Source of the DNA: Thermoanaerobaculia bacterium
Lineage (GTDB): Bacteria; Acidobacteriota; Thermoanaerobaculia; Gp7-AA8
DNA: 36,178 nt
Direction of reading: 5' to 3'
NCBI GenBank assembly: GCA_023700825.1
Contig: JAMPYE010000003.1
Coordinates: forward strand, 1-36,178
Shown: piece by piece, positions 11,799 through 36,178 of the stretch
Layout: the number at the start of each line of letters is the position of its first letter
Position numbering within the stretch: position 1 is the stretch's first letter
Notes under the pieces: model-generated
Databases searched by the model: none
The model's input: the letters and a program-made list of their open reading frames with translations, nothing else
Told to the model about the DNA's origin: nothing
Position numbers and translations under genes: made by a program

Positions 11799-11817
11799 GC
11801 TCCGGTTCCGCCGCGGC

Positions 11818-12663: not shown

Positions 12664-12869
12664 GTTGGCGCAGATTGTAACGCCCGGCAGCGGGAGGGCC
12701 GTCGGGAACAAGTGCGGGGATGGATGCAATTTAGCTCGAAATCTACCAAAACTGAGTCCTCTATTGTGGACACTAAATTGAAATACGGTCCGGAGGGGGG
12801 TGGTTGTCGGGCGCTCAAAGAGGGAAGACTGCTCCCGAAACCAAGACAGATGGAGAACGAAACAAACCT

Positions 12870-13637: not shown

Positions 13638-13649
13638 CGGATCGCACCC

Positions 13650-15829: not shown

Positions 15830-15990
15830 ACGAGACGAGCGGAGTGATTTCCGGCGGGTGGGAGTTCGTCACCGCCGCCTACGCGATCACGGCAGTCTTC
15901 CTGGGGGGGTACGTGGTTTCGGTCCTCGCCCGTTTCTCCAGGGAGAGCAAGGCAGCCCGGCGTCGCGCCTCGGGCTCGGAGGTGAACTAA
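15826..15990 (+). CDS. ccmD: Heme exporter protein CcmD, 54 aa
   Basis: Small single-TM protein (WEFVTAAYAITAVFLGGY) with a basic tail. Overlaps the ccmC stop (ATGA) and the ccmE start (TAATG). Confidence 0.85.
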   Translation: MNETSGVISGGWEFVTAAYAITAVFLGGYVVSVLARFSRESKAARRRASGSEVN

Positions 15991-16481: not shown

Positions 16482-16496
16482 CGGAGGGTTCCCCCC

Positions 16497-19020: not shown

Positions 19021-19025
19021 GTCCG

Positions 19026-21121: not shown

Positions 21122-21153
21122 TCGGGCACCGGATTCCGGTGCCCGATTTTTTT
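21122..21153 (+). terminator. Intrinsic terminator of the ccm operon
   Basis: Perfect 11-bp stem TCGGGCACCGG-att-CCGGTGCCCGA followed by T7. Confidence 0.9.
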
Positions 21154-21210: not shown

Positions 21211-22512
21211 ATGGATAACTCGCTGCAGGGTAATCTCGGTCATTTCTCTCTCCATGACGTTCTTCGCTTCCTCGCGGACGGAGGACGTACGGGAACGATG
21301 AAGCTCACCAGCGGCGGCCGCGAAGCCATCGCGTGGCTCGACGGAGGCGCGATCGTCTTCGCCTGGTCCAACCAGGAGCAGATGCGGATGCCGCTCGTGC
21401 TGGCGCGGCGCGGAAAGCTGACGAAGGATCAGCGCGCACGGCTCGAGGAGCTCGCCAAACAGGAAGGCGAGCGCTTCGCGCAGGCGGCGATCAAGCAGGG
21501 TGTGTTCAAGGCCGATCAACTCCGCGACCTTTCCGCGGAGTACGTCGCCGAAGTGATGATCGACGCTCTCCTCTGGGACGGCGGTTCGTTCGGATTCTCG
21601 GTCGAGCTGGCGCTTCCCGACTCGGCGGTTCCGGTGCTGCTCAAGGTCGACGATCTGCTCGAGCGCGGCGCGAAGCGCGAGGCCGAGTGGGCGGAGTGCC
21701 GCAAGCTCTTCCCGAACCCCGCTCAGGCCTTCCAGGTCATGGGCGACCCCGAGGCCGACGAGAAGATCACGCTCAGCGTCACGCAGTTCAAGACGCTGCT
21801 CAAGATCAAGGAACTCGGCGCCGCGAGCGTCGAACAACTCTGCCTGATGCTCGACCGCGATCCTCTCGAGACCTACCGGACCATGGACGGCCTCCGCACT
21901 GCGGGGCTGATCGTCGAATCGTCGGCGCCCGTTGCCGTCGCGACTGCGCCAGCCGTCAGGCCGGTGCCTCCTCCACCGGCTCCCGCTCCTCCCGTCGTCG
22001 CCGCGCCCCCCCCGCCGCCGCCGGCACCGGAGCTCGAGAGCGAGGACGATGTCCCGACGGCAGTCGCGGACTGGCGTGATCAGGTCGCGCATCCCGCACC
22101 CGATGCCGCTGGCATTCCGGAACCGGAGCCGACTGTTGCCACGCCGCTGGCTTCGTTCCGTCCCGCGCCGGAGCCGTCGATCGAGTCGCTCATCGGAGTG
22201 CTCACGCTCGACAATGCCGACAAGACTTCGTTCCCTCTTTTCGAGACGGAACACTCGGTCGGACGCGAGGCGAACAACTCGATTCAGGTTCCCGACTCGA
22301 GCGTCTCGGGGGCGCACGCACGGATCCGGAAGACGCCCGAGGGATATCTGCTCGAGGATCTGAACAGCCGAAACGGAACGTACGTGAACGGCGAACGGAT
22401 TCAGACCCGCCTGCTTCGGAACGACGACAAGATCCGTCTCGGCAAGGTCCACATGGTGTTCAACCTGCCGACTCAGATGCAGCCGCCGAAGACGACGGCC
22501 CCGGGCGACTAG
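21211..22512 (+). CDS. DUF4388 (PATAN-like) domain, Pro-rich linker and C-terminal FHA domain
   Basis: N-terminus LQGNLGHFSLHDVLRFL...RTGTMKL...GAIVFA...WDGGSFGF. FHA residues VGR, VSGAHA and DLNSRNGTYVNG are intact. Confidence 0.88.
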   Translation: MDNSLQGNLGHFSLHDVLRFLADGGRTGTMKLTSGGREAIAWLDGGAIVFAWSNQEQMRMPLVLARRGKLTKDQRARLEELAKQEGERFAQAAIKQGVFKADQLRDLSAEYVAEVMIDALLWDGGSFGFSVELALPDSAVPVLLKVDDLLERGAKREAEWAECRKLFPNPAQAFQVMGDPEADEKITLSVTQFKTLLKIKELGAASVEQLCLMLDRDPLETYRTMDGLRTAGLIVESSAPVAVATAPAVRPVPPPPAPAPPVVAAPPPPPPAPELESEDDVPTAVADWRDQVAHPAPDAAGIPEPEPTVATPLASFRPAPEPSIESLIGVLTLDNADKTSFPLFETEHSVGREANNSIQVPDSSVSGAHARIRKTPEGYLLEDLNSRNGTYVNGERIQTRLLRNDDKIRLGKVHMVFNLPTQMQPPKTTAPGD

Positions 22513-22759: not shown

Positions 22760-25159
22760 ATGAGCTCACGCCAGAGATTTGATCTCATCATCGTCGGCTC
22801 GGGCCCCGCGGGTATTGCAACCGCGTCGCACGCGCACGACAACGGCATCAACTACGTGCTTCTCGAGAAGACTGACCATCTCTCGGACACGATCTTCTGC
22901 TATCAGGCACGCAAGTACGTCATGGCGGAGCCGATGGCGATCCCCGCGCGCGGCGACGTGCCGTTCGAAGCGGGATCCCGCGAGCAGATTCTCGGAGCAT
23001 GGGAATCGCACGCGAAGAACAAGCAGCTGAAGGTCGAGTACAACAAGGAAGTCAAGTCGGTGAAGAAGGTCGGCGCGACCTTCGAGGTCAAGGCCGCCGA
23101 CGGCAGCGAGTACGAAGGCAAGTGGGTCGTGCTCGCGATGGGAACGCAGGGATCGCAGCGCAAGCCCGGGTGCCCCGGCGAGGACATGTCGCACGTCCTC
23201 TATCGCCTCGCGGATCCTTCCGAATACGCCGAGAAGGACATCATCGTCGTCGGCGCCGGCGATTCCGCGATCGAGATCGCTGTCGCGCTGGCCGACGAGA
23301 ACCGCGTGAGCCTCGTCGTGCGCTCGGCGGAAATCGTCCGTGCGAAGGACAGTCTCATTCGCGAGGTGCTCACGCGGCAGGCGCAGGGCAGCATGACGGT
23401 CTACTACGGCACGACGCTGAAGGAGATCACCCTCGGCCATACCGACCTGAACGTGCGCGGAGAGACCGTTCGCGTTCGGAGCGACTACATCTTCCTGAAG
23501 CTCGGAGCCGACGCGCCCCGGAAGTTTTTCGAGTCGATCGGCGTGAAGTACACGAGTTCCGACAAGGACGCGCGTCCTTCGCTGACGCCGCAGTACGAGT
23601 CGGTCGACGTTCCTGGGCTGTTCCTGATCGGCGCCGCGAGCGGTCGCGACCTGGTCAAGCTCGGCATGAACCAGGGGTGGGAAGTCGTCGAGCATCTCTG
23701 CGGACGCAAGGTCGATCCGGCCGACGAGGCCGTGCTCAAGGAGCGGCTGCCGCACTGGAGCGGTTCCGTCGTCGAGCGAATGCAGCAGATCAAGCAGCGC
23801 GTGCCGCTGCTGGCCGCGGCCGACGACGAGAATCTCCGCGAGATGTTCCTCTCGACGAACGTGCGTGAATACCGCGACGGCGAGGCGATCATCCGCCAGA
23901 ACGACTACACGAACGAGTTTCTCATCATCGCCGAGGGGCGCGTGCAGCTCTGGGTCTCTCCGGAGGGATCGAAGGAGCAGCGGAAGATCACGACGATGAC
24001 CGCGGGGAACTTCTTCGGCGAGATGAGCCTGATCTCCGGCCGCCGCCGCACGGCAACGGCGATCGCGGAAGGACCCACGCGGATCATCGAGGTTCCGCGC
24101 AAGGCGATTCTCAAGCTGCTCGTCACGTCGCCGCGAGTGAAGGATCTCGTCGACCAGGCGTTCCTGATCCGCGCGATCCAGGGATATCTCTTCGGCGACA
24201 CGCCCGCGACGGTGCTGGGCGAGCTCGCCGCCAAGGCGACGATGATCACGCTCGCCAAGGATGCACCGGTGTTCAAGGAAGGCGATCCGGGCGACGCGTT
24301 CTACCTGATCCGCAACGGCATGGTGAAGATCGGCAAGACTTCGAACGACAAGGAGATCGTCCTTTCGTATCTCGTCGCCGGCAACTTCTTCGGCGAGTCG
24401 GCGCTGCTCGAGGGCGCGCCGCGCACCGCGACCGTGACGACGATCTTCCCGTCGGAGCTGATCAAGCTTTCGAAGCGGGACTTCGACCAGTTCCTCGACA
24501 GTCAGCCCGAACTGAGGAAGAAGCTGCTCAAGAAGCTCGAAGACCGGCGCGTGCTCAGCCTCATCGCCGAGGCGACGCCGGGGTCGGGGAGCATCCTGAA
24601 CGACCTGATCCGCGAAGAGGTCGTCATGGGAACGCACTCGCTGATCATCGACAACCACAAGTGCGTGCGGTGCAGCAACTGCATCCGCGCGTGCGAGGGG
24701 GTCCACGCCGACGGGCAGTCGCGCCTCTCGCTCACGGGCATCCAGCTCTACAACCTGCTCGCGCCGAACTCGTGCTGGCAGTGCCAGAACCCGATGTGCA
24801 TGCTCGACTGTCCGCCCGACGCGCTCACGCGCGACCCGCGCGGCGAGGTCTACATCCGCAGCAACTGCATCGGCTGCGGCAACTGCGAGAGGAACTGCCC
24901 GTACGGCAACATCTTCATGGTGCATCCGAAGCATGAAGGCGGCGGTCTGTTCGGCTGGATCAAGGGACTCTTCAGCAAGGAGAAGGCGGCGCACGACGAG
25001 GTCGAACGCACGCTGGCGGTCAAGTGCGACCTCTGCCGCGAGATCAGCGGCGGGCCGGCGTGTGTTCGCAGCTGTCCCACGGGCGCCGCGGTCCGGCTCA
25101 CTCCCGAGGAATACCGGGGCACACTCGAGGAACTGGTCATCATGAGAGGAGAGCGTTAG
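22760..25159 (+). CDS. Fusion of TrxR-fold FAD/NAD(P)H oxidoreductase, two cNMP-binding domains and a 4x[4Fe-4S] DmsB/NrfC-like domain
   Basis: IIVGSGPAG and VVGAGDSA dinucleotide motifs. cNMP cassettes FFGEMSL...RTATA and FFGESAL...RTATV. Cys groups CVRCSNCIRAC, CWQCQNPMCMLDCP, CIGCGNCERNCP and CDLC-x8-CVRSCP (16 Cys). Confidence 0.92.
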   Translation: MSSRQRFDLIIVGSGPAGIATASHAHDNGINYVLLEKTDHLSDTIFCYQARKYVMAEPMAIPARGDVPFEAGSREQILGAWESHAKNKQLKVEYNKEVKSVKKVGATFEVKAADGSEYEGKWVVLAMGTQGSQRKPGCPGEDMSHVLYRLADPSEYAEKDIIVVGAGDSAIEIAVALADENRVSLVVRSAEIVRAKDSLIREVLTRQAQGSMTVYYGTTLKEITLGHTDLNVRGETVRVRSDYIFLKLGADAPRKFFESIGVKYTSSDKDARPSLTPQYESVDVPGLFLIGAASGRDLVKLGMNQGWEVVEHLCGRKVDPADEAVLKERLPHWSGSVVERMQQIKQRVPLLAAADDENLREMFLSTNVREYRDGEAIIRQNDYTNEFLIIAEGRVQLWVSPEGSKEQRKITTMTAGNFFGEMSLISGRRRTATAIAEGPTRIIEVPRKAILKLLVTSPRVKDLVDQAFLIRAIQGYLFGDTPATVLGELAAKATMITLAKDAPVFKEGDPGDAFYLIRNGMVKIGKTSNDKEIVLSYLVAGNFFGESALLEGAPRTATVTTIFPSELIKLSKRDFDQFLDSQPELRKKLLKKLEDRRVLSLIAEATPGSGSILNDLIREEVVMGTHSLIIDNHKCVRCSNCIRACEGVHADGQSRLSLTGIQLYNLLAPNSCWQCQNPMCMLDCPPDALTRDPRGEVYIRSNCIGCGNCERNCPYGNIFMVHPKHEGGGLFGWIKGLFSKEKAAHDEVERTLAVKCDLCREISGGPACVRSCPTGAAVRLTPEEYRGTLEELVIMRGER

Positions 25160-25161
25160 GC

Positions 25162-25992
25162 GTGCCAATCCCGCGTTACGGTGTCCGCTGGCGCATCATC
25201 GCCCTCGTTCTGACGATCGGGCTCGTCGCGTCGTACGTCTGGTACCAGGGGCGCGAGCCGTTCACTCACGGTGGAACGCCGACGGGCCTCATCTACGGCT
25301 TCGTCGCCCTCTTCATGATGGGGTTCCTGCTTTATTTCGGCATCCGGAAGCGCGCCTACCGCAGTCGCTTCGGCACCCTGCAGGAGTGGTTGCACGCACA
25401 CATCTGGCTCGGTCTCTTCAGTTTCTTCGTGATCGTGGCCCATACCGGCCTCCGCTTTCAGGACAAGATTGCCGTGGCGCTCTTCGTGGTGATCGTCGGG
25501 GTGATCGCCACGGGCATCTTTGGGGCGCTGCTCTACAAGACGATTCCGAGAGAGCTGACGGAGATCCAGTCGAACCTCACGGGGCAGGAGATCTCCGACC
25601 AGCTCAATCAGCTTTCGAAGGCGATGGCGCGAATCGCGTCGGGCAAGTCGTCGCCGTTCCAGAGGATCTACTACAGTCTCCAGCGCGAGGCGATGCCGGG
25701 ATTCCTGGCGGGCTGGAAGCTCATCCTCTCGAGCGGCAAGCGGAACGAGAAGGCGGGAGACTGGACCGGCCTGGTCGGGATGGTCGAGAAGAGCGAGCAA
25801 GACGAGCTTCGTCAGTTGCTCGTCGCCTCGCGCCAGCAGAAGGAGCTGCATCTTCGCCTCGTCTACCAGCAGCGCTACCGCAACATTCTCGATTTCTGGC
25901 TCTACCTGCACATTCCCCTGTCGGTTGCGATGATCGTGCTGATCTTCGCGCACGTGTGGGGTGTCTTCTACTACGGCGTGGTCAAGTTCTGA
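25162..25992 (+). CDS. Inner-membrane protein, probable di-heme cytochrome b (ferric-reductase-like TM domain), 276 aa
   Basis: GTG lies 2 nt after the upstream stop. About 5 TM helices, two of which carry His pairs spaced i/i+14: HIWLGLFSFFVIVAH and HIPLSVAMIVLIFAH. Confidence 0.75.
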   Translation: MPIPRYGVRWRIIALVLTIGLVASYVWYQGREPFTHGGTPTGLIYGFVALFMMGFLLYFGIRKRAYRSRFGTLQEWLHAHIWLGLFSFFVIVAHTGLRFQDKIAVALFVVIVGVIATGIFGALLYKTIPRELTEIQSNLTGQEISDQLNQLSKAMARIASGKSSPFQRIYYSLQREAMPGFLAGWKLILSSGKRNEKAGDWTGLVGMVEKSEQDELRQLLVASRQQKELHLRLVYQQRYRNILDFWLYLHIPLSVAMIVLIFAHVWGVFYYGVVKF

Positions 25993-26035
25993 GGACGCGA
26001 GCCCCGCGAGACGGCTCGACGAGATACGGCGAACG

Positions 26036-28435
26036 ATGAGCTTCATCATTCAGAGGATCGAAGGCTCCAAGGTCATTCTTCGGGAGCACAAGGGCTCGAC
26101 GCTGCGGATCGGACGCGGCACGGATGCGCAGCTCCGATCGGAGAATCCGGTCGTTGCCCTCGAACACGCCATCATCGAGGCGCTCGAGTCGGGCTACGAC
26201 ATCGTCGACCGCGGCAGCATCACCGGCACCTACCTGAACGGCAGGACGATCGAGTCGAGCCGGCTCGGCAAGGGTGACGAGATCGAGATCGGCGACCTTC
26301 GGATCACGGTGCAGTCCGCCGACGCGGGCCGGCCGCTCTTCATCCGCGTCGAGGAGACCGACGAGGAGAGCGCCGCCGACGAGGACATTCCGGTGCCCGT
26401 GGGCACCGTCGCTCTCCCTCGGCCCGCTCCCGGAGGCGTGCTCAAGGCGCCGCGCGTCGACTACGTCGCGTCGTATCAGCTGCAGCGGAAGTTCCTCTCG
26501 AAGACCGTCGTGGCGTGGATGGCGATTCTCGTCGCTCTCACGACGCTCGGACTCGTCACCGTCGGCAACCAGCAGGTGGCGTTCCGCCCCGGCAAACTCT
26601 CCGTCGCGCACACCCAGGCCGCGGTCGAAGGCGTGCGACTGATCGGCGAGAGCAACTGCAGCGCGTGCCACGCGCCGTGGGGCGGCGCGACCGACGAGAA
26701 GTGCCAGGCATGTCACAAGCAGGCCGGTCACCAGGAAGGCCTCGCGCAGGTTGGCGCATGCACGGCGTGCCACACCGAGCACCGCCAGCTCGCGAATCTC
26801 GGCGAGGTCTATCAGCGCGAGTGCCTCGCGTGCCACAAGGAACTGCAGCCCGATCCCGGCAAGACGCTTCGCGTCGCGAAGAACATCACTGCGTTCGAGA
26901 AGGACCATCCCGAGTTCAAGCTCACCATCCTCGCCGGCGGCAAGGAGACGAAGGTCAGCCTGAGCGACCCGAAGGGTCGTTCGGCCGACGCCAATCGCTT
27001 CAAGTTCAACCACCAGTGCCACGTCGTCGGCACCTGCAACAAGCGACCCCCGACGATCGAGAACCCGGTCCAGGAAGTCGAGAAGCTGACGTGCGACTCG
27101 TGCCACAAGGTTCAGGGCGACACGGGCATCATCGACGACCGCTCGTACGACAAGTACTGTGCGCGCTGCCACCCTCTCACCTTCGACAACCGCTTCCCGC
27201 CGGTTCCTCACCATCTGAACCTGCAGACCGTCGCCGGCTACATCGCCAACGCCTACTCTGGAAACCAGAACATCCTGAAGATGAGCGCCGAGGAAGTCAC
27301 TCGCGTCTTCGCGTCGGGCTCGTCGAACCAGATCAACGTGGGAAGCGAGATCGTCCGCAGCGCGCAGCGAACGGTGCAGGCGCGATGCAAGGTCTGCCAC
27401 GACTTTCAGCCTAACGGGGAGGCCGTGCGTCCGCCGACCAAGTCGAACCGCTGGTTCAAGGGCCAGCGCGTCTTCGACCACGGCAAGCACCTCAACGAGA
27501 GCGTCAAGACCAAGTGCATCGACTGCCACGAAGGCGTGGTCGAGAGCAAGAAGACGTCCGACGTCAACATGCCGGGCATCAAGACCTGCGTCGGCTGCCA
27601 CAAGGCGGCGAGCGAGTACAAGGACAAGGGCATCGAGACGTGCCAGACGTGCCACGCGTACCACTCGCTGACGGTGTCGCAGGGAGCGGGTTGGACGCTC
27701 AAGGCCTCCGTCATTCCTGCGGAGATGCGACTCATCGCGCTCGGAGGCAAGTCGGAGTCGCAGCAACCCGGCAAGCCGGCGACGAACCGCTTCGCGGTAC
27801 CCCTTTGGGCGGCGTTCGCCGTGCCGATCGGCCTGGTCGTGCTCATCGGAGTCGTCGGCGGGTTGCTCGGCGCGATCCGTGCGCGCGCCGCCGCTCCGAC
27901 TCCTCCTCCCGCGCCGCCCAAGCCCAAGGGCGGAGCGCCGAAGCCCGCACCTTCCGCCGCGCCCGCTGCGCCCCCGAAACCCGCAGCCCCGAAACCTGCT
28001 GCGCCTAAACCGAAGCCGGCGCCCCCGCCTCCTCCCGTTCTTCCCGAGAGCACGGTGGCGATGGATCTCTCCGAAGTGAAGCGTACGGTCGCGGAGGCGC
28101 TGCCGGCGGGACCGACGGTGAATGCCGAGTACTTCGGCAGAATCGCCTTCACCGGAGGGAAGTTGTCGGGACAGAGCTTCACGATCGATCCCGACAAGGG
28201 TCTCTTCATCGGACGAGACCGCGAGGTCGCGAGCGTCGTGATCGATGACTCCCGCATCTCGAGACGCCACACGTGGGTCGGCGTTAGGGACGGCAAGGTC
28301 GTCGTGGTCGATCAGAAATCGACCAACGGCACGTACCTGGAGTCGACTCAGAACCGGATCACCGAGGCGGAGTTGAAGGAAGGCGCAGTCGTGATTCTCG
28401 GGGAGAACGCGGCGAGTTTCAGGTATGAGCGCTGA
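26036..28435 (+). CDS. FHA - TM - decaheme cytochrome c - TM - Pro-rich linker - FHA, 799 aa
   Basis: Ten CxxCH motifs (CSACH, CQACH, CTACH, CLACH, CDSCH, CARCH, CKVCH, CIDCH, CVGCH, CQTCH) between two hydrophobic helices. FHA motifs at both ends (IGR...HA...GTYLNG; IGR...SRRH...STNGT). Confidence 0.92.
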   Translation: MSFIIQRIEGSKVILREHKGSTLRIGRGTDAQLRSENPVVALEHAIIEALESGYDIVDRGSITGTYLNGRTIESSRLGKGDEIEIGDLRITVQSADAGRPLFIRVEETDEESAADEDIPVPVGTVALPRPAPGGVLKAPRVDYVASYQLQRKFLSKTVVAWMAILVALTTLGLVTVGNQQVAFRPGKLSVAHTQAAVEGVRLIGESNCSACHAPWGGATDEKCQACHKQAGHQEGLAQVGACTACHTEHRQLANLGEVYQRECLACHKELQPDPGKTLRVAKNITAFEKDHPEFKLTILAGGKETKVSLSDPKGRSADANRFKFNHQCHVVGTCNKRPPTIENPVQEVEKLTCDSCHKVQGDTGIIDDRSYDKYCARCHPLTFDNRFPPVPHHLNLQTVAGYIANAYSGNQNILKMSAEEVTRVFASGSSNQINVGSEIVRSAQRTVQARCKVCHDFQPNGEAVRPPTKSNRWFKGQRVFDHGKHLNESVKTKCIDCHEGVVESKKTSDVNMPGIKTCVGCHKAASEYKDKGIETCQTCHAYHSLTVSQGAGWTLKASVIPAEMRLIALGGKSESQQPGKPATNRFAVPLWAAFAVPIGLVVLIGVVGGLLGAIRARAAAPTPPPAPPKPKGGAPKPAPSAAPAAPPKPAAPKPAAPKPKPAPPPPPVLPESTVAMDLSEVKRTVAEALPAGPTVNAEYFGRIAFTGGKLSGQSFTIDPDKGLFIGRDREVASVVIDDSRISRRHTWVGVRDGKVVVVDQKSTNGTYLESTQNRITEAELKEGAVVILGENAASFRYER

Positions 28436-28443
28436 TTTCCGGG

Positions 28444-28472
28444 TTGACAAGACACGGATCCAAGGTTACGTT
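28444..28472 (+). promoter_or_regulatory. Putative sigma70-type promoter upstream of the GlcG/HbpS-like gene
   Basis: TTGACA (28444-28449), 17 nt spacer, TACGTT (28467-28472) in a 64-nt intergenic gap. AAGGTG RBS before ATG 28500. Confidence 0.6.
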
Positions 28473-28499
28473 TTCGCCACAACTTAAAAAGGTGAATCG

Positions 28500-30269
28500 A
28501 TGAGCCCAAGAGCCTTGCATCGTGGGGTAGTACGCCGTTTTCTGCTCATTTTCACGATATCCCTGCTGGTCGGCGCGGGCGCAGCGCTGGCGCAGCCGAC
28601 TCCTCCCGACTGCGCGGGAGTCGACGTCGTCGGTTCTCCCTGTCGCGACGGGCGCCCCGGGGGGATCGAGGCGGCGGAGGGATCGTTCCTTCCGCTCAAC
28701 GCCGACGAGGTGAGAAGCCTGGCGGTGACGGCGTCGGTTCTGATCGACGATCCGAAGATCACCGTGGCGGTGGTCGATCGGGCAGGCAGGGTTCTCGCGA
28801 TCGTGAGAAATCCCGAGGCCGACCCCGCGAACGACGAGTTGGCAGTGGGCGTCGCGCGCACGTCAGCGTTCTTCAGCCACAACACCGCGCCGCTCTCGTC
28901 GCGCACCGTGCGTTTCATCAGCAGCCTGCACTTCCCACCTGGCGTGAAGAAGGCCTACGAGAACGCGCTGTACGGGATCGAGAACACCAATCGCGGCTGC
29001 GACTTCAACCTTCAGTTCAACGCGGGAAAGTGCATTCCCCGCGCGACTTCCGTCGTCAATGCCGGACCCTGCAACGGGCTCGACAACTCCGGCTGCGGGC
29101 CGGGGATCGTGACGGGCAAGCCGCAGCCGTTCGATCAGCACGAGGACGGGAAGCACCCGGCGCCGATCGGACTGCAGGGACCCTTCAACCCGGGCGGTCT
29201 GCCGGTCAATGCGGGCGGCATTCCGCTCTACCGCATCGGCAGTTTCGAGATTCTCAAGGGAAGCCTCGCCGAGGGCAATGCGAAGGTCGAAGTCGAAGGG
29301 CCCAGCTACATGGTCGGAGCCATCGGAGTCGCGGGCGTGTCGTCGGACCACGCGGAGTTCGCGGCGTTCGGCGCGGCCGCGCTCGGAGTCCCCGGGGTCA
29401 TCTTCCCGGCTCCGTCGTTCCCCGAACTGCCGCGGCCCGGGCGAGTCATCATCGACGGAATCCGCCTTCCTTTCGTCGACCAGGGGTTTCGTCCGAAAGG
29501 CACGAGGCAGGCGGCGGCGGCTTCGGGGACGTTCATCGTCGGTCCGAATCCCGGAGGGTGCGTCGGCAACCGTTATCTCGCCGGGCCGATCGGATCGCCC
29601 GAGCTGAGCCGTGACGAGGTGGACGGGATCATTCGCCGCAGCGTCGCGACCGCGCAGAAGACGCGCGGATACATCCGCCTTCCGCTGAACTCCTACTCGC
29701 GGATGGTCATCGCCGTCTCCGACCTGAACGGCAACATCCTCGGGCTCTATCGCATGCCGGACGCGACGATCTTCTCGATCGACGTCGCGGTGGCGAAGGC
29801 TCGCAACGTCGTCTACTTCAGCGGCGCAGGAAACTCGGATCTGCCCGGCGTGCCGGTGGGTACCGCGGTCAACGCCCGCACGCTCGGTTATGCCGGCTCC
29901 CCGCTCTTCCCGGGTGGCATCGATTTCACGGACCCGGGGCCGTTCTTCGACATCTTCCTCAACGACCTCGCCAACGCCTGTTCACAGGGGTTCCAGGCGC
30001 CTAACGCCAACCAGAACGGGATCGTCTTCTTCCCGGGCTCGACGCCGCTCTATCGGAACGGGGTTCTGGTCGGTGGCCTCGGGATTTCCGGGGACGGCGT
30101 CGACCAGGACGATTACGTGACGCTCAAAGGAGCAGCAGAGTTCTACCCCGATCCCTCGATCTGGGCCGATCGCGTGAAGATCGACGGAGTCCGACTGCCG
30201 TACCTCCACCTTCCCCGCCAGCCGGAAGGCGTAACCGAGAAATTCATTGAGCCCTTCGATGAGCCATAG
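28500..30269 (+). CDS. Exported protein with two GlcG/HbpS-like heme-binding domains
   Basis: Signal peptide ending ALA-Q. Domain 1: VAVVDRAG...ART...GGIPLY...VGAIGVAG. Domain 2: IAVSDLNG...AVAKARN...PGSTPLY...VGGLGISG. Confidence 0.82.
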   Translation: MSPRALHRGVVRRFLLIFTISLLVGAGAALAQPTPPDCAGVDVVGSPCRDGRPGGIEAAEGSFLPLNADEVRSLAVTASVLIDDPKITVAVVDRAGRVLAIVRNPEADPANDELAVGVARTSAFFSHNTAPLSSRTVRFISSLHFPPGVKKAYENALYGIENTNRGCDFNLQFNAGKCIPRATSVVNAGPCNGLDNSGCGPGIVTGKPQPFDQHEDGKHPAPIGLQGPFNPGGLPVNAGGIPLYRIGSFEILKGSLAEGNAKVEVEGPSYMVGAIGVAGVSSDHAEFAAFGAAALGVPGVIFPAPSFPELPRPGRVIIDGIRLPFVDQGFRPKGTRQAAAASGTFIVGPNPGGCVGNRYLAGPIGSPELSRDEVDGIIRRSVATAQKTRGYIRLPLNSYSRMVIAVSDLNGNILGLYRMPDATIFSIDVAVAKARNVVYFSGAGNSDLPGVPVGTAVNARTLGYAGSPLFPGGIDFTDPGPFFDIFLNDLANACSQGFQAPNANQNGIVFFPGSTPLYRNGVLVGGLGISGDGVDQDDYVTLKGAAEFYPDPSIWADRVKIDGVRLPYLHLPRQPEGVTEKFIEPFDEP

Positions 30270-32298
30270 AACGAACGCACTCGCTCTTGCCGCGGCGGTT
30301 CTGATCGCCGTGGCCGCGCTCGGCGCGCACGCCGAGGATCTGACGCTGACGATCGGGGTGTCGGCAGACACGCCGGTCTACGCACACACCGCGAGGCCGG
30401 AGATCGCCGGCTCGACGAACGCCCCGCCCGGTTCGGTCGTCGCCATCACGATCGACGGACAGACGCAGAACGCGCAGGTCGGCGAGGACGGCAAGTTCTC
30501 CGTCGAATGGGGCATCGACCTCGAGGTCGGGTCGCACCTGGTCAGCGCGAGCGTTTCGACTGCCGACGGCCGGAGCGCGAAGGCCGAGCAGGATCTTCGC
30601 GTCGACCTCGAAGAGTTCATGCCGCGCCAGCCGATCGAGCCGCTTCTGATTCCGGAGCCGCTCCCGCGGATCGTCCCGAACATCGAGGACTTCGCCGCGT
30701 ACACCGACCGCTGGCAGATCTCCCCGCCGGCCGACTACGAGTTGCAGGTGTCCCCGCGAGGGAAGTGGGATCCGTACAACCAGAACATCCTCAAGGGAGA
30801 CAAGCCTCGCTTCGGCAAGGACATCTTCCTGAACCTGACCGGAATCTCCGACTTCCTCGTCGAGATCCGCGACCTGCCGACGCCCACGGGCATCTCGACC
30901 GACGACCCGACCTCGTTCCCGTTCTTCGGTGACAGCGAGCAGGTCGTCATGAACCAGAACGTCGTGATGACCGCGGACCTCTACAAGGGCCTGACCACCT
31001 TCCGCCCCGCGACGTGGCGTGCCCGCGCCACCCTGGTGGGCAACGTGAACCACGTGATTCTGCAAGAGGCGAACGCCGTGAACATCGACGTGCGAGAGGG
31101 GACCGATCGCACGGATGGAACCTTCGCCGTGCAGGAGCTCTTCTACGAACGCAAGCTCGCCGACCTGACTGAGAGCTTCGACTTCATGTCGATCCGCGCC
31201 GGGGTGCAGAGTTTCGTCAGCGACTTCCGCGGCTTCATCTTCAACGACCAGAACCTCGGTGTCCGTTTCTTCGGCAACTGGGACGCGAACCGTTACCAGT
31301 ACAACGCGGCTTTCTTCGATCGTCTCGAGAAGGACACCAACAGCGGGCTCAACAAGGTGGAGCGGCGCGAGCAGCAGGTGTTCATCATGAACGCCTACCG
31401 GCAGGACACGTTCGTGCCGGGTTACACCACTCAGGTCAGCTTCCACTACCTCCACGACGATCCGTCGGTGTACTACGACAAGAACGGCTTTCTCGTGCGC
31501 CCTGCGCCGGTCGGTGACTTCGTGCCGCACGAAATCGACGCTTACTACCTCGGCTGGTCAGGGCTCGGCAAGGTCGACGTCTGGAACGTCGATCACGCGT
31601 TCTACTACGTTACCGGCAAGGACAGTCGTAGCCCGATCGCGGGCTCGGATCCGCTCGGCGGCGGAGTCGGCAACGACGGCGTCACGCCGGGTTCGGCCGA
31701 GGTCGACATCAACGGGTACATGGGCTTCGTCGAGATCTCGCGCGACTACGACTGGCTTCGCCCGAGGGCGGCGATCTTCTTCGCGTCGGGAGACGACGAC
31801 CTGTACGATCGCGACGCGGAAGGCTTCGACGCGGTCTTCTCTAACGTGAACGCGCTCGGCGGCGGCTTCAGCTTCTGGAACCGCCAGGGAATCCGTCTTC
31901 CTGGGACGGGCGTCGGCCTCACGCAGCGCGGAAGCCTCCTGGCCGACCTGACGAGCAGCAAGGACGAAGGGCAACCGGAGTTCGTGAACCCGGGCGTGCA
32001 GATCGCGAGCGTCGGACTCGACGTCGACGTCACCCCGAGGATCAAGGCGATCTTCACGACGAACTACATTCGCCTGGCCAAAACCGAGGTCGTCGAGGGC
32101 CTGATCTTCCAGGACGACGTCGACAAGGAGATGGGGCTCGACGTGAGCCTCGGCGTCCGTTACCGACCGTTCTTCTCGAACAACATGACCGTCCTCGGTG
32201 GCGCGGCGATGTTCGCGCCTGGCTCGGGCTGGGAAGACATCTACGAAGACGACGATCTGCACTGGCAATTCTTCACGACACTGACTCTGCAGTTCTGA
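30259..32298 (+). CDS. Outer-membrane beta-barrel protein with N-terminal Ig-like domain, 679 aa
   Basis: Signal peptide (AHA-E). Bacterial Ig-like segment (PEIAGST...GSVVAITIDG...VGEDGKFSV). Many amphipathic strands and C-terminal BAM-type signal FFTTLTLQF. Overlaps the upstream stop. Confidence 0.8.
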   Translation: MSHRTNALALAAAVLIAVAALGAHAEDLTLTIGVSADTPVYAHTARPEIAGSTNAPPGSVVAITIDGQTQNAQVGEDGKFSVEWGIDLEVGSHLVSASVSTADGRSAKAEQDLRVDLEEFMPRQPIEPLLIPEPLPRIVPNIEDFAAYTDRWQISPPADYELQVSPRGKWDPYNQNILKGDKPRFGKDIFLNLTGISDFLVEIRDLPTPTGISTDDPTSFPFFGDSEQVVMNQNVVMTADLYKGLTTFRPATWRARATLVGNVNHVILQEANAVNIDVREGTDRTDGTFAVQELFYERKLADLTESFDFMSIRAGVQSFVSDFRGFIFNDQNLGVRFFGNWDANRYQYNAAFFDRLEKDTNSGLNKVERREQQVFIMNAYRQDTFVPGYTTQVSFHYLHDDPSVYYDKNGFLVRPAPVGDFVPHEIDAYYLGWSGLGKVDVWNVDHAFYYVTGKDSRSPIAGSDPLGGGVGNDGVTPGSAEVDINGYMGFVEISRDYDWLRPRAAIFFASGDDDLYDRDAEGFDAVFSNVNALGGGFSFWNRQGIRLPGTGVGLTQRGSLLADLTSSKDEGQPEFVNPGVQIASVGLDVDVTPRIKAIFTTNYIRLAKTEVVEGLIFQDDVDKEMGLDVSLGVRYRPFFSNNMTVLGGAAMFAPGSGWEDIYEDDDLHWQFFTTLTLQF

Positions 32299-32314
32299 CC
32301 GAGGCACGCGCGCC

Positions 32315-35300
32315 ATGACTCAAATGATCGGAAAACTGACCACCAATCCGCCGCGCGCCGCAATCGCGGTGATCGCCTTCGTCGCGATTCTCTGCCTGCC
32401 GGCGATCGTCACGTCGTCGACCAGCGGCACACAGGTCGACGCGACGACCGCGTTGATGTCCCAGACGCACGAGCAGGCGCTCGCGAAGAGCCGTTCATGC
32501 CTCGGCTGCCACGAAGGGATCGAGGACGCGCACGCCTCCGACGCCGTCAAGCTCGGCTGCACCGACTGTCACGGGGGTGACGCGAACGTCGCGGTCACGA
32601 AGGGATGGTCGCGCGAGTCGGCCGAGTACGAGCAGGCGATGAACTCGTCGCACGTGCTGCCCCGCCATCCGGAGAACTGGGTGCGCGACGGGCGGCGCAC
32701 GTCGTCGAATCCGACGAACTCTTACGTCGACCTGATGAAGGAGCCGGCGGAGTTCGTGAAGTTCATCAACCCCGGCGATCTCCGCGTCGCGCAGGAAGCG
32801 TGCGGCGGCTGCCACCAGAAGCAGGTCAACAACGTGCCGAAGAGCACGATGGCGACGGCACAGACGTTCTGGGCGGCCGCTTCGTACGCGAACGGAATCC
32901 TCGGTCTCAAGTACGGCATCCTCGGCGAGCACTACACCCGCGACGGCGAGCCGGGCATGATCAAGGAAACGCGCACGCTCACCGACGAAGAGAAAGCGCG
33001 TGGCGCACTTTCCGTGGCGCTGCCGCTTCCCCGCTGGGAGCTCATCCAGCCGGGTGAGTACTTCCGCGCGTTCGAGCGCGGCGGCATCGAGTCGGGGAAC
33101 ACGCCGCCTGAGCCAGGCAATCCGAACATCCTGGAGGAGGCGGGCAAGCCCGATCTCCGCCTGAGCAATCGGGGCCGCGGCACGGGCCTCCGCATCAGCC
33201 CCGCGCTGATCAACATTCACAAGACCCGACTCAACGATCCGCACCTGTCGTTCCTCGGTACGAACGACCACCCGGGCGACTATCGCTCTTCGGGTTGCAG
33301 CGCGTGCCACGTCGTCTACGCGAACGACCGCGATCCGTTTAACTCCGGCCCCTACGCGAAGTACGGCCACCAGGGGCTCAGCCAGACCGGCGACCCGACG
33401 ATTCCGAAGAACGAGAAGGGCCACCCGATCCGCCATCGCCTGAGCCGTGCGATTCCGACGGCGCAGTGCATGGTCTGCCACATGCATCAGCCTAACTCGT
33501 TCGTGAACACCTATCTCGGCTACACGATGTGGGAGAACGAGATCAACGCGGAGTTCATGTATCCGAAGAAACAGAAGTACCCGACGGCCGAGGAGGAGGA
33601 TGCGATTCACATCCACAATCCCGAAGGCTCGTCGGTGCGTGGGCTCTGGTCTGACACCGACTTCCTCGAAAAGGTCAGCGAGCTGAACCCGAAGCTCGAA
33701 GATGGCCAGTTCGCCGACTACCACGGCCACGGCTGGATCTTCAAGGCGATCTTCAAGAAGGACCGCAAGGGAAACCTGCTCGACAAGGACGACAACATCG
33801 TCTCGTTCGAGGACCCCGAGAAGTTCAAGAAGGCGGTCCACCTCAAGGACATCCACCTCGAGAAGGGGATGCACTGCGTCGACTGCCACTTCGAGGTCGA
33901 CAACCACGGCGACAGTTACCTCAAGAGCGAGTACGCGGAAACGATCGAGATCGACTGCGAGAACTGCCACGGCGACAACGACTCGTACGCGAACCTGCGC
34001 ACGACCGGTCCCGCCGCCCCCAAGGGGGGCACCGATCTGTCTCTCATGACGACATCGGGAGGACGCCGCCGCTTCGCCTGGATCGACGGCAAGCTCTTCC
34101 AGCGCTCGGTCGTCGACCCGACGCTCGAGTGGGAAGTCAGCCAGGTCAAAGACTCGATCACGCCTGGACATCCGCAGTACAACGAGAAGTCCCGTTACGC
34201 GAAGACGATCCAGAAGGACGGCTCCACATGGGGGCTCCCCGCCACGGCGGACAAGCTCGCGCACTCGAACCAGAAGATGTCGTGCTACACCTGCCACTCT
34301 TCGTGGATCACGTCGTGCTTCGGCTGCCACCTTCCGCAGAAGTCGAATCGGAAGACCGAAATGCAGCACTACGAGGGAACCGAGACGCGCAATTACGCGA
34401 GCTACAACCCGCAGGTAGTGCGCTCCGACGTCTACATGCTCGGCGTCCACGGCCGCGCGGAGAAGGGCAAGATTGCGCCGGTCCGTTCGTCGAGCGCGCT
34501 GATGCTGAGCTCGACGCAGTCGAACCGCCAGAAGATCTACAACCAGCAGACGACGATCTCGGCGCCGGGCTTCAACGGCCAGGCGTTCAACCCGCACGTT
34601 CCGCACACGGTGCGAACCAGGGAGACGAAGGGCTGCCCCGACTGTCACGTCTCCGAGGCGAACGACAACAACGCCTGGATGGCGCAGCTGCTGCTTCAGG
34701 GCACGAACTGGGTGAACTTCATCGGGAAGTACGCCTGGGTGGCGACCGGGGACGAAGGGATCGAAGCGATCCGCGTGACGGAGGATCCGGAGCCGCAGGC
34801 CGTCATCGGGAGCACGCTCCACAAGATCGTCTATCCCGATTACTACGCGAAGCACGAGAAGAACCACAAAGAACTCGAGGACGCGTATCACCATCACGGC
34901 CACGGGATCCGCAGCCTCCAGCAGCGGGGTGAGTATCTTTACGTCGCGAAGGGCCACGATGGCGTGCAGGTCTACGACATCGCGGTCGTCGACAATAAGG
35001 ACTACTCCGAGCGCTTCGTGAGCTCGCCGTTCACCAAGTACGGCCAGAACACGAAGATCAAGACGAAGTACGCGACGGCGATCGCATTGCCGACGAACAT
35101 GCCGATGGCGCCGCACCGCAAGCCGTTGCCGGGCGAGCAGCTGATCCACCCGACCTATTCGTACGCGTATATCAGCGACAAGGAAGAGGGCCTGATCCTC
35201 TTCAACTCGAACACCTTCACCGACGGCGATCCGCTCAACAACTTCATCGAGAGGGCGGTCACCTTCAACCCCGACGACGCGCTCCACGGAGCGATGAACC

Positions 35301-36094
35301 TGACCGTGGCGGGCAACTATGTGTACCTGGTGTGTGACCGGGGACTACAGATCATCGATGTCAACGATCCGCTCAAGCCGTCGATCATCGCAACGGTCCC
35401 GGAGATCAAGCATGGCACGGCGGTCGCCGTGCAGTTCCGGTACGCGTTCGTGACCGATGCCGACGGGCTGAAGGTCGTCGACATCACGACTCCGAGCCAG
35501 CCGCGCCTCGCCGCAACCGTGCCGCTCGAGGACGCGCGCAACGTCTACGTCGCGAGAACCTACGCGTACGTGGCGGGCGGCAAGCAGGGAATGGTGATCG
35601 TCGACGTGGAGAAGCCGGAGCAGCCGTTCGTCGACCAGGTGTACGACGCCGAGGGCGAGATGCACGGGGTCAATGACATCAAGGTGGGCTCCACGTCGTC
35701 GAGTCTCTACGCCTACGTCGGCGACGAGCACGGGCTTTTCGTCATCCAGCTGACGTCACCGAAGACGGTGCCTGGGTTCGAGGGCTTCTCGCCCCGTCCG
35801 GTCCCGAACCTCATCGCGAAGCGGCACACGCACTCGGCGGTGCTCGCGCTCTCGAAGGGGCTCGATCGCGACAGGGCTGCCGACGAGAGCGGGAACCAGA
35901 CGATCGTCTTCAACAGGCAGGGAGCCCGGCCGATGAACCTGACCGAGCTGCAGAGAATGTACCTGAGAGACGGCCGCCTCTGGACGGTCAAGGCGACGCC
36001 GCCAGGCCCGCCGATGGATCCGCCTCCGGTTGGCGAACAGGCAACGGCGACGCCTGCCCCGAATTCGGCCACCACGACGGGAGGCGGACGATGA
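32315..36094 (+). CDS. Exported decaheme cytochrome c fused to a C-terminal LVIVD-repeat beta-propeller, 1259 aa
   Basis: Ten CxxCH motifs (CLGCH, CTDCH, CGGCH, CSACH, CMVCH, CVDCH, CENCH, CYTCH, CFGCH, CPDCH). Repeats YVY...GLQIIDVNDP, YAFV...GLKVVDITTP and YAYV...GMVIVDVEKP. N-terminal hydrophobic signal. Confidence 0.92.
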   Translation: MTQMIGKLTTNPPRAAIAVIAFVAILCLPAIVTSSTSGTQVDATTALMSQTHEQALAKSRSCLGCHEGIEDAHASDAVKLGCTDCHGGDANVAVTKGWSRESAEYEQAMNSSHVLPRHPENWVRDGRRTSSNPTNSYVDLMKEPAEFVKFINPGDLRVAQEACGGCHQKQVNNVPKSTMATAQTFWAAASYANGILGLKYGILGEHYTRDGEPGMIKETRTLTDEEKARGALSVALPLPRWELIQPGEYFRAFERGGIESGNTPPEPGNPNILEEAGKPDLRLSNRGRGTGLRISPALINIHKTRLNDPHLSFLGTNDHPGDYRSSGCSACHVVYANDRDPFNSGPYAKYGHQGLSQTGDPTIPKNEKGHPIRHRLSRAIPTAQCMVCHMHQPNSFVNTYLGYTMWENEINAEFMYPKKQKYPTAEEEDAIHIHNPEGSSVRGLWSDTDFLEKVSELNPKLEDGQFADYHGHGWIFKAIFKKDRKGNLLDKDDNIVSFEDPEKFKKAVHLKDIHLEKGMHCVDCHFEVDNHGDSYLKSEYAETIEIDCENCHGDNDSYANLRTTGPAAPKGGTDLSLMTTSGGRRRFAWIDGKLFQRSVVDPTLEWEVSQVKDSITPGHPQYNEKSRYAKTIQKDGSTWGLPATADKLAHSNQKMSCYTCHSSWITSCFGCHLPQKSNRKTEMQHYEGTETRNYASYNPQVVRSDVYMLGVHGRAEKGKIAPVRSSSALMLSSTQSNRQKIYNQQTTISAPGFNGQAFNPHVPHTVRTRETKGCPDCHVSEANDNNAWMAQLLLQGTNWVNFIGKYAWVATGDEGIEAIRVTEDPEPQAVIGSTLHKIVYPDYYAKHEKNHKELEDAYHHHGHGIRSLQQRGEYLYVAKGHDGVQVYDIAVVDNKDYSERFVSSPFTKYGQNTKIKTKYATAIALPTNMPMAPHRKPLPGEQLIHPTYSYAYISDKEEGLILFNSNTFTDGDPLNNFIERAVTFNPDDALHGAMNLTVAGNYVYLVCDRGLQIIDVNDPLKPSIIATVPEIKHGTAVAVQFRYAFVTDADGLKVVDITTPSQPRLAATVPLEDARNVYVARTYAYVAGGKQGMVIVDVEKPEQPFVDQVYDAEGEMHGVNDIKVGSTSSSLYAYVGDEHGLFVIQLTSPKTVPGFEGFSPRPVPNLIAKRHTHSAVLALSKGLDRDRAADESGNQTIVFNRQGARPMNLTELQRMYLRDGRLWTVKATPPGPPMDPPPVGEQATATPAPNSATTTGGGR

Positions 36095-36150
36095 CCGTCG
36101 TGACGCCACGTACTCGCGCGCATGCAGAAGAGATGAAAAGGGAGTCGAAC

Positions 36151-36178
36151 ATGAAACGTCTCATGTCGATCGCAGCGA
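36151..36178 (+). CDS. Start of a further, probably exported, gene (MKRLMSIAA...), truncated by the window end
   Basis: AGGGAG RBS before ATG 36151. The frame is open from ATG 36091, which overlaps the upstream stop. Only 9 codons are visible. Confidence 0.5.

Follow-up and report, generated by a model that had tools for sequence, protein, structure and literature searches.

The contig JAMPYE010000003.1 of a Thermoanaerobaculia bacterium (assembly GCA_023700825.1), which was analysed over its entire length of 36178 bases and is called the window below, carries a string of genes for redox, signalling and envelope proteins. This locus raises the question of how electrons would travel through these proteins, in which direction and to what acceptor. 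The original prediction was a trans-envelope electron conduit leading from NAD(P)H to the outer membrane or an exported enzyme, or in the reverse direction, with control by cyclic nucleotides (cNMP) and phosphothreonine built into the wire. Our own reading, to which we give roughly an even chance, is that the cluster encodes a regulated system moving electrons from the cytoplasm to a periplasmic multihaem enzyme. The genes concerned, P1 to P7, are as follows.

22760-25159, + strand: P1, cytoplasmic FAD/NAD(P)H flavoprotein of thioredoxin reductase (TrxR) fold with two cNMP-binding domains and a 4x[4Fe-4S] ferredoxin domain, 799 amino acids
25162-25992, + strand: P2, membrane protein with five transmembrane (TM) helices, predicted di-haem b cytochrome, 276 amino acids, GTG start
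26036-28435, + strand: P3, N-terminal FHA domain (degenerate), TM helix, periplasmic decahaem part, TM helix, Pro-rich linker and C-terminal FHA domain (canonical), 799 amino acids
28500-30269, + strand: P4, exported protein with two HbpS-like/DUF336 domains, 589 amino acids
30259-32298, + strand: P5, outer-membrane 18-stranded beta-barrel (AlphaFold2 model) with N-terminal Ig-like domain and disordered linker, 679 amino acids
32315-36094, + strand: P6, exported decahaem part (about 820 amino acids, 10 CxxCH) fused to an LVIVD beta-propeller, 1259 amino acids
36151-36178, + strand: P7, start of a periplasmic tetrahaem cytochrome cut by the contig end (start of the open reading frame (ORF) and orthologue in locus L001)

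A conserved gene cluster in many phyla

The ORF listing and translation reproduced exactly the layout first proposed, with P1 to P6 all on the + strand, intergenic gaps of 2, 43, 64, -11 and 16 nucleotides and a seventh gene starting at the edge. Every domain that had been assigned to P1-P6 was also confirmed, using Pfam, NCBIfam and motif counts. The start of P2 is preceded by GAGGAG. The P7 ORF begins with MKRLMSIAA..., has AAGGGAG upstream and encodes a signal-peptide-like N-terminus. By motif counts, with P7 counted from its homologues, the cluster encodes 24 c-type haems.

In order to survey the locus, one genome per species was scanned for P6, and 80 loci were kept. P6 was confirmed in at least 591 genome stretches from many phyla (591 of 599 candidates among the matches listed). 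Their lineages are those of soil, groundwater and the sea, and nitrite oxidisers and methanotrophs are among them. The record titles of the 80 loci name Thermoanaerobaculia, other Acidobacteriota, Nitrospira/Nitrospirota, Binatia, 'Deltaproteobacteria', Bdellovibrionota, Polyangiaceae, Bacteroidota, Planctomycetota and Alpha-, Beta- and Gammaproteobacteria. The system is directly testable, since several named isolates carry the cluster: Limnobacter alexandrii LZ-4, Parahaliea maris HSLHS9, Stagnimonas aquatica THS-13 and Fontimonas sp.

Synteny was counted with tblastn and ORF-level blastp of P1-P7 in the 45 loci having at least 9 kb upstream of P6. P5 was present in all 45 of these long loci, P3 in 43, P2 and P4 in 42 each, P1 in 39 and a P7-like ORF in 38. 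The complete set P2 to P5 was found in 39 of the 45, showing that the genes do co-occur across genomes, as the original prediction had supposed. P1 and P2 are missing from L008, L030 and L080, two of which also lack P3, and P4 was not detected in L039, L054 and L060. Two gene orders are the commonest, each with 13 loci: P1 to P7 colinear, and P2 to P7 followed by P1, the latter of Burkholderiales type. In a few loci (L023, L026, L036), the P1-P2-P3 block is moved or inverted with respect to P4-P7.

Within the class of the window, P6 was found in 32 of 151 sampled genomes; in its family, the window's own genome excluded, it was found in 25 of 35. A P2 profile gave 29 strong matches (E < 1e-70) in the class sample, in P6-positive genomes only. 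For the 32 P6-positive genomes, P2 lies on the same contig within about 11 kb in 26 cases and on another contig of a fragmented assembly in five; genome G072, also P6-positive, has no P2 match at E ≤ 1e-10. Because the same gene string recurs across phyla and within the class, the arrangement goes beyond chance. Overall, the six-gene cluster is real, conserved and very widespread.

The predicted inner-membrane module

Pfam identifies Pyr_redox_3 (E 2e-39), together with Pyr_redox_2, two stretches of cNMP_binding (E 1.5e-43) and Fer4 families in P1. The corresponding relatives in the PDB are TrxR-fold flavoproteins of the YpdA/Bdr type, the tandem cNMP domains of protein kinase A/G regulatory subunits and polyferredoxins of the HycB type. 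The ferredoxin part contains four Cys4 motifs, whose 16 iron-sulphur (FeS) cysteines are invariant in 42 of 42 sequences, as are the GxGxxG motifs for FAD and NAD(P)H. A CxxC is absent from the flavin domain, so that P1 is not a disulphide reductase. In the same alignment, both cNMP domains carry an FGE...R phosphate-binding cassette. Conservation is at least 95% for G420, E421, R430, G545 and R555 and at least 80% for E546. We take G420/E421/R430 and G545/E546/R555 to be the positions that bind the cyclic nucleotide phosphate, and to judge from these residues the cNMP sites look functional.

The P2 sequence shows five hydrophobic helices and lacks cysteine. Its histidines H80 and H94 are present in 47 of 47 sequences and H250 and H264 in 46 of 47; each pair sits on a single helix with 13 residues between the two histidines, and H250/H264 occupies the last helix. 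The window's P2 stays under the Pfam cut-offs for Ferric_reduct (21.6 bits, cut-off 28), DUF4405 (18.3, cut-off 26.7) and Ni_hydr_CYTB (16.5, cut-off 30.1). Among 29 members of the P2 family, 13 match Ni_hydr_CYTB (E ≤ 0.01, best 2e-7), five Ferric_reduct and four DUF4405, which we take to be families of di-haem membrane b cytochromes. P2 is therefore predicted to be a di-haem b cytochrome, with two histidine pairs on two TM helices. The positive-inside pattern would place the 120-residue loop 122-246 in the cytoplasm, and one histidine of each pair would lie near each membrane face.

A natural fusion joins the same kinds of domains. In genome G052, from the same class, a 744-amino-acid ORF (L083:8194-10428, + strand) combines a 2x[4Fe-4S] ferredoxin, a Pyr_redox_3 flavoprotein and a P2-like domain; hhalign matched the latter to P2 with a probability of 97% (E 8e-11) and aligned the histidine pairs. 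The fusion amounts to a flavocytochrome resembling NAD(P)H oxidase (NOX), made from different parts. Similar frames of 745-750 amino acids exist in G088 and G116. No multihaem ORF was seen near the 744-amino-acid fusion within the 20 kb fetched. Elsewhere, P2-like genes are located directly 5' of ORFs with 32 and 41 CxxCH motifs (L081, about 9380-13431, + strand; L082, 3936-3, - strand), which suggests that giant multihaem cytochromes, too, receive their electrons at the membrane through members of the P2 family.

Overall, the inner-membrane logic is well supported by the sequence evidence. The order of carriers proposed for this membrane, from NAD(P)H and FAD through FeS clusters and haem b to haem c, fits the cofactor motifs, their conservation and the fusion of Fer4, flavoprotein and P2-like domains.

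The decahaem-propeller protein P6 and the tetrahaem P7

P6 combines ten CxxCH motifs with three stretches of LVIVD (E 2e-20, Pfam). Its own genome holds one copy, and databases contain at least 8000 relatives. The best 120 of them share 56-94% identity over at least 87% of the query and, where the source gives a name, are always called 'hypothetical protein'. In an alignment of twelve P6 sequences from several phyla, the mean column identity is 65% and all ten CxxCH motifs are invariant. Many histidines, aspartates and asparagines outside the motifs are invariant as well, and identity across phyla remains about 50-60%. The conserved stretches called invariant are KTRLNDPH, NDHPGDYRSSGC..CH, CHMHQPN and DYHGHGW. 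In the haem part, with ten haems in about 820 residues, the density is about one haem per 80 residues. Inspection by eye showed Sec-type signal peptides without a consistent lipobox at twelve P6 N-termini, and likewise for P7.

About 600 residues of P6 have no Pfam or PDB relative. Pfam gave no match for residues 201-500, and neither the whole P6 profile nor either of its halves had a significant match among PDB sequences (best E 0.088; NrfA at E 0.31). With ExtM (NCBIfam NF040943), P6 scored 93.9 bits (E 8e-27) over three local stretches, far from the cut-off of 800. Overall, its strong conservation, low haem density and ordinary signal peptide make P6 look like an enzyme.

Two other ideas about P6 were discarded. 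Several matches had been flagged as containing an internal TGA, which would suggest selenocysteine. Five of the seven stretches concerned have no internal stop, one has a stop only in the unconserved C-terminal tail, where the gene ends, and the seventh, L092, yielded no alignment row. Kinship of P6 with the pentahaem or octahaem proteins of the ptd-like clusters described below was also rejected, the similarity being limited to a local di-haem segment (hhalign probability 34% over 112 columns for the pentahaem). G012, G083 and G139 each give the P6 match as two or three pieces lying side by side, maybe because of frameshifts, assembly errors or decaying copies.

P7 was characterised from its homologues. 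The orthologue in L001 has 492 amino acids and matches Cytochrome_C554 (E 1.6e-11), and all 38 homologues compared have four CxxCH motifs in about 460-490 amino acids.

The outer-membrane barrel P5 and the HbpS-like protein P4

P5 starts with a signal peptide, and its last residues are ...LTLQF. Its AlphaFold2 model, computed from a 33-sequence alignment (predicted local distance difference test, pLDDT, 81; predicted template modelling score, pTM, 0.69), comprises an Ig-like domain (residues 30-115), a disordered linker (121-184) and 18 long strands (189-678). When the model was compared to the PDB with Foldseek, AlgE ranked first (E 8e-17, template modelling score 0.68-0.70 normalised to AlgE, 12-14% identity), followed by OccD/OccK channels, chitoporin, MOMP and OmpF-type porins; MtrB was absent among the 50 matches listed. 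At the sequence level, Pfam gave no family at E ≤ 1 for residues 150-679, and a PDB search with the P5 profile gave no match at E ≤ 10. P5 and P6 each stand for a large conserved family that has neither a Pfam model nor a relative of solved structure. The cluster contains no polysaccharide genes, so P5 is found without an alginate biosynthesis context. A barrel of 18 strands that comes closest in fold to AlgE and Occ proteins favours a channel over an MtrB-type sheath: as modelled, P5 would be an AlgE/Occ-like solute channel, not a cytochrome sheath.

This result bears on the possibility of a true trans-envelope conduit, in which electrons from P3 or P7 would pass through or at P5 to a surface-exposed P6 and reduce extracellular Fe(III), Mn(IV), humics or electrodes. 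Such a conduit would account for the presence of multihaem proteins with 24 c-type haems and of an outer-membrane barrel in one operon. In addition, P3 matches the MtrC/MtrF domain II/IV model at the cut-off, and the accessible text of a Tenderiales preprint describes LVIVD repeats as cell-surface repeats. However, the 18-stranded AlgE/Occ-like model of P5, with no MtrB among the matches listed, and the P6 N-termini without a consistent lipobox do not point to the cell surface. P6 is also conserved far above what is usual for surface cytochromes. The cluster has no quinol dehydrogenase, and many carriers belong to aerobic genera (Limnobacter, Parahaliea, Stagnimonas, Nitrospira, Methylobacter). 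Therefore, we regard the conduit as unlikely, and as less likely than a periplasmic reductase with a dedicated channel. The outer-membrane step is a part of the original prediction that was not supported, given the type of barrel, the P6 and P7 N-termini and the enzyme-like character of P6.

In P4, a signal peptide accompanies two HbpS-like stretches (E 2e-23, Pfam). EfgA, the PduO C-terminal domain and HbpS are its only PDB relatives. The motif GxSGDGxxQDD is conserved; the alignment shows no conserved histidine, tyrosine or cysteine pattern suggestive of haem ligation. Some members of the HbpS-like family are extracellular haem-binding proteins. This leads to the idea of a reductive iron or haem acquisition system, in which P5 would import a ferric or haem compound, P4 would bind it and P6 and P7 would reduce it for uptake. 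An outer-membrane channel and a reductase encoded in one operon would suit this function, and iron is needed by every aerobe. We consider it very improbable, however: besides the missing ligand pattern and the lack of P4 in three of the 45 long loci, no TonB-dependent receptor, Feo/Efe transporter or ABC importer was found among the recurrent neighbour families of the 80 loci, and control by cNMP and Ser/Thr kinases would be unusual for iron uptake.

P3, FHA domains and proposed signalling control

In P3, the ten CxxCH motifs lie within about 335 residues, and ten are found in 39 of 40 homologues. Pfam detects FHA in two stretches (E 1e-24), and there are two TM helices. P3 also matches Cytochrome_C7. 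The common form of the protein consists of an FHA domain, one TM helix and the decahaem part, for a total of about 520-600 amino acids. The second TM helix occurs only in the nine Thermoanaerobaculia forms, and the C-terminal FHA domain is also specific to Thermoanaerobaculia.

The phosphothreonine-binding positions of a canonical FHA domain are GR, S-R-x-H and S-x-N-G. Across 41 sequences of the N-terminal FHA domain of P3, the GR and the histidine are kept. The serine is found in only five of the 41, alanine being present in 27, the arginine is replaced by leucine in 30 and the asparagine loop is not conserved. This N-terminal domain may be a docking domain. In contrast, the C-terminal FHA domain keeps the canonical residues, both in the window and in each of the six Thermoanaerobaculia forms compared at this end. 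The proposal of phosphothreonine control built into the wire is weakened, the shared N-terminal domain being non-canonical in most of the sequences and the lineage-specific C-terminal one alone canonical.

Upstream of P1, the window contains a further FHA gene.

21211-22512, + strand: protein with DUF4388 and FHA domains (Pfam), 433 amino acids, probable signalling accessory of the cluster

The Pfam E-values are 8e-21 for DUF4388 and 1.4e-19 for FHA. The GR, S..H and SRNGT positions are present in its FHA part, which recurs directly upstream of P1 in L002, L013 and L015 with 44-48% identity. This gene probably belongs to the system of the cluster.

The neighbourhood was then surveyed over the 80 loci, from several phyla, by clustering the ORFs outside the cluster and using Pfam and gene positions to describe the resulting families. 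All counts are lower bounds because the flanks are limited. A PP2C phosphatase was found in at least 11 of the 80 loci, a two-FHA protein in at least nine, a Ser/Thr kinase in at least seven and a CHASE2-adenylate/guanylate cyclase in at least seven. A recurrent family of 1101-amino-acid ORFs overlaps the cyclase gene on the opposite strand, and was set aside as a high-GC antisense artefact. In the ptd-like clusters, an FHA domain is fused to the flavoprotein. Since kinase, PP2C, FHA and cyclase genes recur as neighbours and the ptd-like flavoprotein carries FHA, cNMP and phospho-Ser/Thr signalling appears as a family trait, in a form somewhat different from the one originally predicted. The proposal of cNMP control is supported, both phosphate-binding cassettes of P1 being intact and the signalling genes recurring beside the cluster.

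Such elaborate control by second messengers, kinases, phosphatases and FHA proteins would also suit a regulated NOX-like redox valve. Excess electrons from NAD(P)H would then be released to O2 or to a non-specific acceptor, for making or detoxifying reactive oxygen species, for redox balance, or in attack or defence. The combination of an NAD(P)H flavoprotein with a di-haem b protein and the natural single-chain fusion resemble a NOX, and predatory lineages carry the cluster (four Bdellovibrionota/Bdellovibrionales loci and one Polyangiaceae locus). However, 24 c-type haems, a conserved P6 of 1259 amino acids, a barrel and a double HbpS-like protein exceed what O2 reduction needs, and neither Pfam nor NCBIfam detects a peroxidase, catalase or superoxide dismutase domain in the cluster. 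We therefore hold this valve to be quite improbable.

Proposed mechanism and direction of electron flow

The reading that we prefer, a regulated system feeding a periplasmic multihaem enzyme, can be described as follows. NAD(P)H would be oxidised by P1 at the flavin domain of TrxR fold, and the electrons would pass via the four [4Fe-4S] clusters to the cytoplasmic-side haem of P2. P2 would then transfer them through the inner membrane to P3, the decahaem protein anchored there, which would contact and reduce the soluble tetrahaem P7 and the decahaem-propeller P6. P6 would be the terminal reductase, in the periplasm, for a small, probably anionic substrate. The AlgE-like channel P5 would provide a way in for the substrate or out for the product, and the double HbpS-like P4 would be an accessory. 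The flux would be gated by binding of cyclic AMP or cyclic GMP (cAMP/cGMP) to P1. It would also be under Ser/Thr phospho-signalling through the FHA domains, with the kinase, PP2C, FHA and CHASE2-cyclase genes often encoded alongside.

NAD(P)H was taken as the donor because outward flow is downhill and helped by the inside-negative membrane potential; by standard bioenergetics, inward flow would be doubly uphill. The outward direction is thus an inference. In the opposite scheme, P6 and P7 would take electrons from a donor in the periplasm or outside the cell, for example Fe(II), a sulphur compound or a nitrogen compound, and P3 and P2 would feed the quinone pool or P1. Quinone sites are frequent in the superfamily of P2, and lithotrophs, for instance Nitrospira and Limnobacter, are among the carriers of the cluster. 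A P3-like 'Forkhead-associated protein' with 10 CXXCH is also reported, in the accessible part of a Gallionellaceae pangenome study, for 27 of 87 iron-oxidiser genomes (PMC10734462). However, these Gallionellaceae proteins are likened to P3 by description only, and many carriers of the cluster are heterotrophs. Electrons would have to enter against the membrane potential and then be passed on to NAD(P)+. Furthermore, P1 is kept as a complete NAD(P)H/FAD/FeS unit, and the fused Fer4-flavoprotein-P2-like protein resembles an exporter of the NAD(P)H oxidase type. Inward uptake therefore appears improbable to us.

Several points weigh against outward flow to a periplasmic P6 reductase. First, P2 could also react with quinones, by analogy with other members of its superfamily. 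Second, P3 reaches the Mtrc-MtrF_II-IV_dom model at its cut-off, with 30.2 bits for 30. Third, an 18-stranded P5 lowers the probability of electron transfer at the outer membrane without bringing it to nil, because small barrels reportedly can pass electrons, as in Cyc2, said to be a fused cytochrome-porin. Fourth, catalysis by P6 and its periplasmic location are suggested by conservation, haem density and signal peptides alone. Fifth, the N-terminal FHA domain of P3, the one common to all homologues, appears to be without the canonical phosphothreonine-binding positions. Sixth, full-text literature searches, in which supplementary tables were not covered, found no functional study of the cluster, as the original prediction had anticipated. 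Finally, authors who described related genes chose other readings. In the accessible text of a preprint on the ptd operon, the related cluster is read as a porin-cytochrome complex, in favour of the conduit (bioRxiv 10.1101/2023.11.21.568154), and that of a Ferrigenium preprint proposes a role of the Fe(II)-oxidation type for an FHA-nonahaem trio, in favour of inward uptake (10.64898/2026.01.22.701106).

With these points in mind, our preferred reading can be extended into a more specific proposal, which we hold tentatively. P6 would be the catalytic subunit of an unrecognised, very widespread family of periplasmic multihaem enzymes, powered directly by cytoplasmic NAD(P)H through a NOX-like module of FeS, di-haem b and decahaem proteins. 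The module would be switched by cAMP/cGMP and by the kinase, phosphatase and FHA proteins. The whole would form an 'electron valve' that lets mostly aerobic bacteria from many phyla reduce an anionic environmental substrate arriving via a dedicated AlgE-like channel. The module would act as a portable injector and serve different terminal enzymes, the ptd operon being one such case.

Redox systems in the periplasm or outside the cell normally draw on the quinone pool. A system drawing directly on NAD(P)H, whose donor protein carries cNMP sites and which brings along kinase, phosphatase, FHA and cyclase genes, would, if true, wire the cytoplasm to the outside in a different way. Because the cluster is common, a new reductase activity could matter for element cycling.

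Other features of the window

Directly upstream of the cluster, the window contains a system I cytochrome c maturation operon (14423-21097, + strand) encoding CcmB, CcmE, CcmF, CcmH and a TPR/CycH-like protein. In the survey of neighbours, ccm genes stand beside the cluster in at least eight of the 80 loci, all of Burkholderiales type. The sole convincing terminator was found 3' of the window's ccm genes, at 21122-21146, with an 11-bp stem and a T7 run. In a scan of the cluster itself, promoter and terminator signals were at chance level. No Rfam match at the gathering score was obtained in the window or in four further loci.

Genes related to cyclic di-GMP (c-di-GMP) are also located near the cluster, at 5476-7200 (+ strand) and 9057-11219 (- strand) in the window and at L001:15297-19442. 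Their types, in the window and its closest relative, are GAF-GGDEF, PAS-GGDEF-EAL, PilZ and response regulator. The GGDEF-EAL family was found in nine of the 80 loci, which may be chance, the family being so common. Unrelated neighbours in the window encode a flavin reductase-like protein (1595-2191, + strand), a gamma-glutamyltranspeptidase (7197-8945, + strand) and an FdhD/NarQ-family protein (11818-12729, - strand). Pfam gave no match for the window ORFs 2338-4595 and 12660-14288, both on the - strand.

Comparison with known systems

The nearest published description of the cluster is that of the ptdABCDEFG operon of marine Alphaproteobacteria. According to the accessible text of the preprint, this operon encodes a pentahaem protein, a porin, an FAD/NAD(P) oxidoreductase, a tetrahaem protein, a cNMP-binding 4Fe-4S protein, a ferric-reductase-like membrane protein and a decahaem protein; it is widespread, and its function is stated there as 'completely unknown' (bioRxiv 10.1101/2023.11.21.568154). 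As described, it has the same inner-membrane parts as the window, and the tetrahaem and the porin are also common to both. In contrast, the flavoprotein and the cNMP/FeS protein form a single chain, P1, in the window, and FHA is carried by the decahaem protein. The terminal protein is the decahaem-propeller P6 instead of the NrfA-like pentahaem PtdA, and the window has no pentahaem gene.

The published Ptd proteins were compared by description, and the comparison by sequence was made with two ptd-like clusters from P6-negative Thermoanaerobaculia genomes (L084:2585-15559 and L085:2723-15173). These contain genes for a pentahaem protein, a porin-like protein, an octahaem protein, a cNMP+Fer4 protein, a P2-like protein, a decahaem protein, a two-FHA protein and a 765-amino-acid flavoprotein with FHA and 2Fe-2S domains. 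They match P1 (E 2e-42), P2 (8e-13), P3 (1e-17) and P7 (8e-12), the counterpart of P1 being split. P4 is extra in the window, and the P5 barrel is not detectably related to the ptd-like porin, a kinship that was rejected at an hhalign probability of 0.1%.

A second published parallel comes from Gallionellaceae. The accessible text of the Ferrigenium straubiae preprint presents a trio made of an FHA-multihaem protein, a 5-TM protein and a [4Fe-4S] protein, called novel and of unknown function (10.64898/2026.01.22.701106). In the Gallionellaceae pangenome, the 'Forkhead-associated protein' with 10 CXXCH is listed under 'Other' (PMC10734462). Compared by description only, the trio shares with the window a membrane-anchored multihaem protein with a cytosolic FHA domain, co-encoded with 5-TM and [4Fe-4S] proteins. 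It differs by its nine haems, its single TM helix and its position next to nirK, and the accessible text mentions no P4-P7 genes.

By analogy, the nearest studied functional counterpart would be the Geobacter cluster extHIJKLMNOPQS, which, in the accessible part of its description, also combines an anion-type porin, ExtI, with periplasmic multihaem proteins and a b-cytochrome/FeS entry in the inner membrane (PMC5877670). Its catalytic partner, a pentahaem selenoprotein, is reported to be a polysulphide reductase (PMC13510729). However, the ext entry is described as a quinol-fed Rieske/cytochrome b complex (bc-like), without flavoprotein, cNMP or FHA domain (PMC5877670). Moreover, P6 carries a propeller and remains far under the ExtM cut-off, with local similarity only, and P6 relatives showed no in-frame TGA in their interior.

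With MtrCAB and Pcc systems, the window shares the co-encoding of decahaem proteins and an outer-membrane barrel. The MtrB barrel has 26 strands, whereas that of the window is modelled as 18-stranded and AlgE-like. The cluster also has no evident lipoprotein cytochrome and no feeder of the CymA, ImcH or CbcL type, NAD(P)H being the proposed donor. As for AlgE itself, P5 shares the fold of an 18-stranded barrel and shares neither the sequence family nor the alginate context.

The inner-membrane module has precedents of other kinds. NOX and Fre-MsrQ-MsrP use flavin chemistry with NAD(P)H on the cytoplasmic side and pass the electrons through two stacked b haems across the membrane to a periplasmic enzyme, and complexes of the FdnH-FdnI type join a 4x[4Fe-4S] protein to a di-haem b subunit. 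In contrast to these systems, the flavoprotein of the window has the TrxR fold and is not of the FNR type, P2 has five TM helices and scores under the Pfam cut-offs, the acceptors are c-type multihaem proteins, and signalling domains are fused to the components.

The novelty initially suggested therefore stands in part. The cluster as a whole is uncharacterised, whereas its inner-membrane module is already in print within the ptd operon, and an FHA-multihaem trio has been described in Gallionellaceae. Overall, the cluster consists of known cofactor modules in a new arrangement, part of which has already been named, as ptd.

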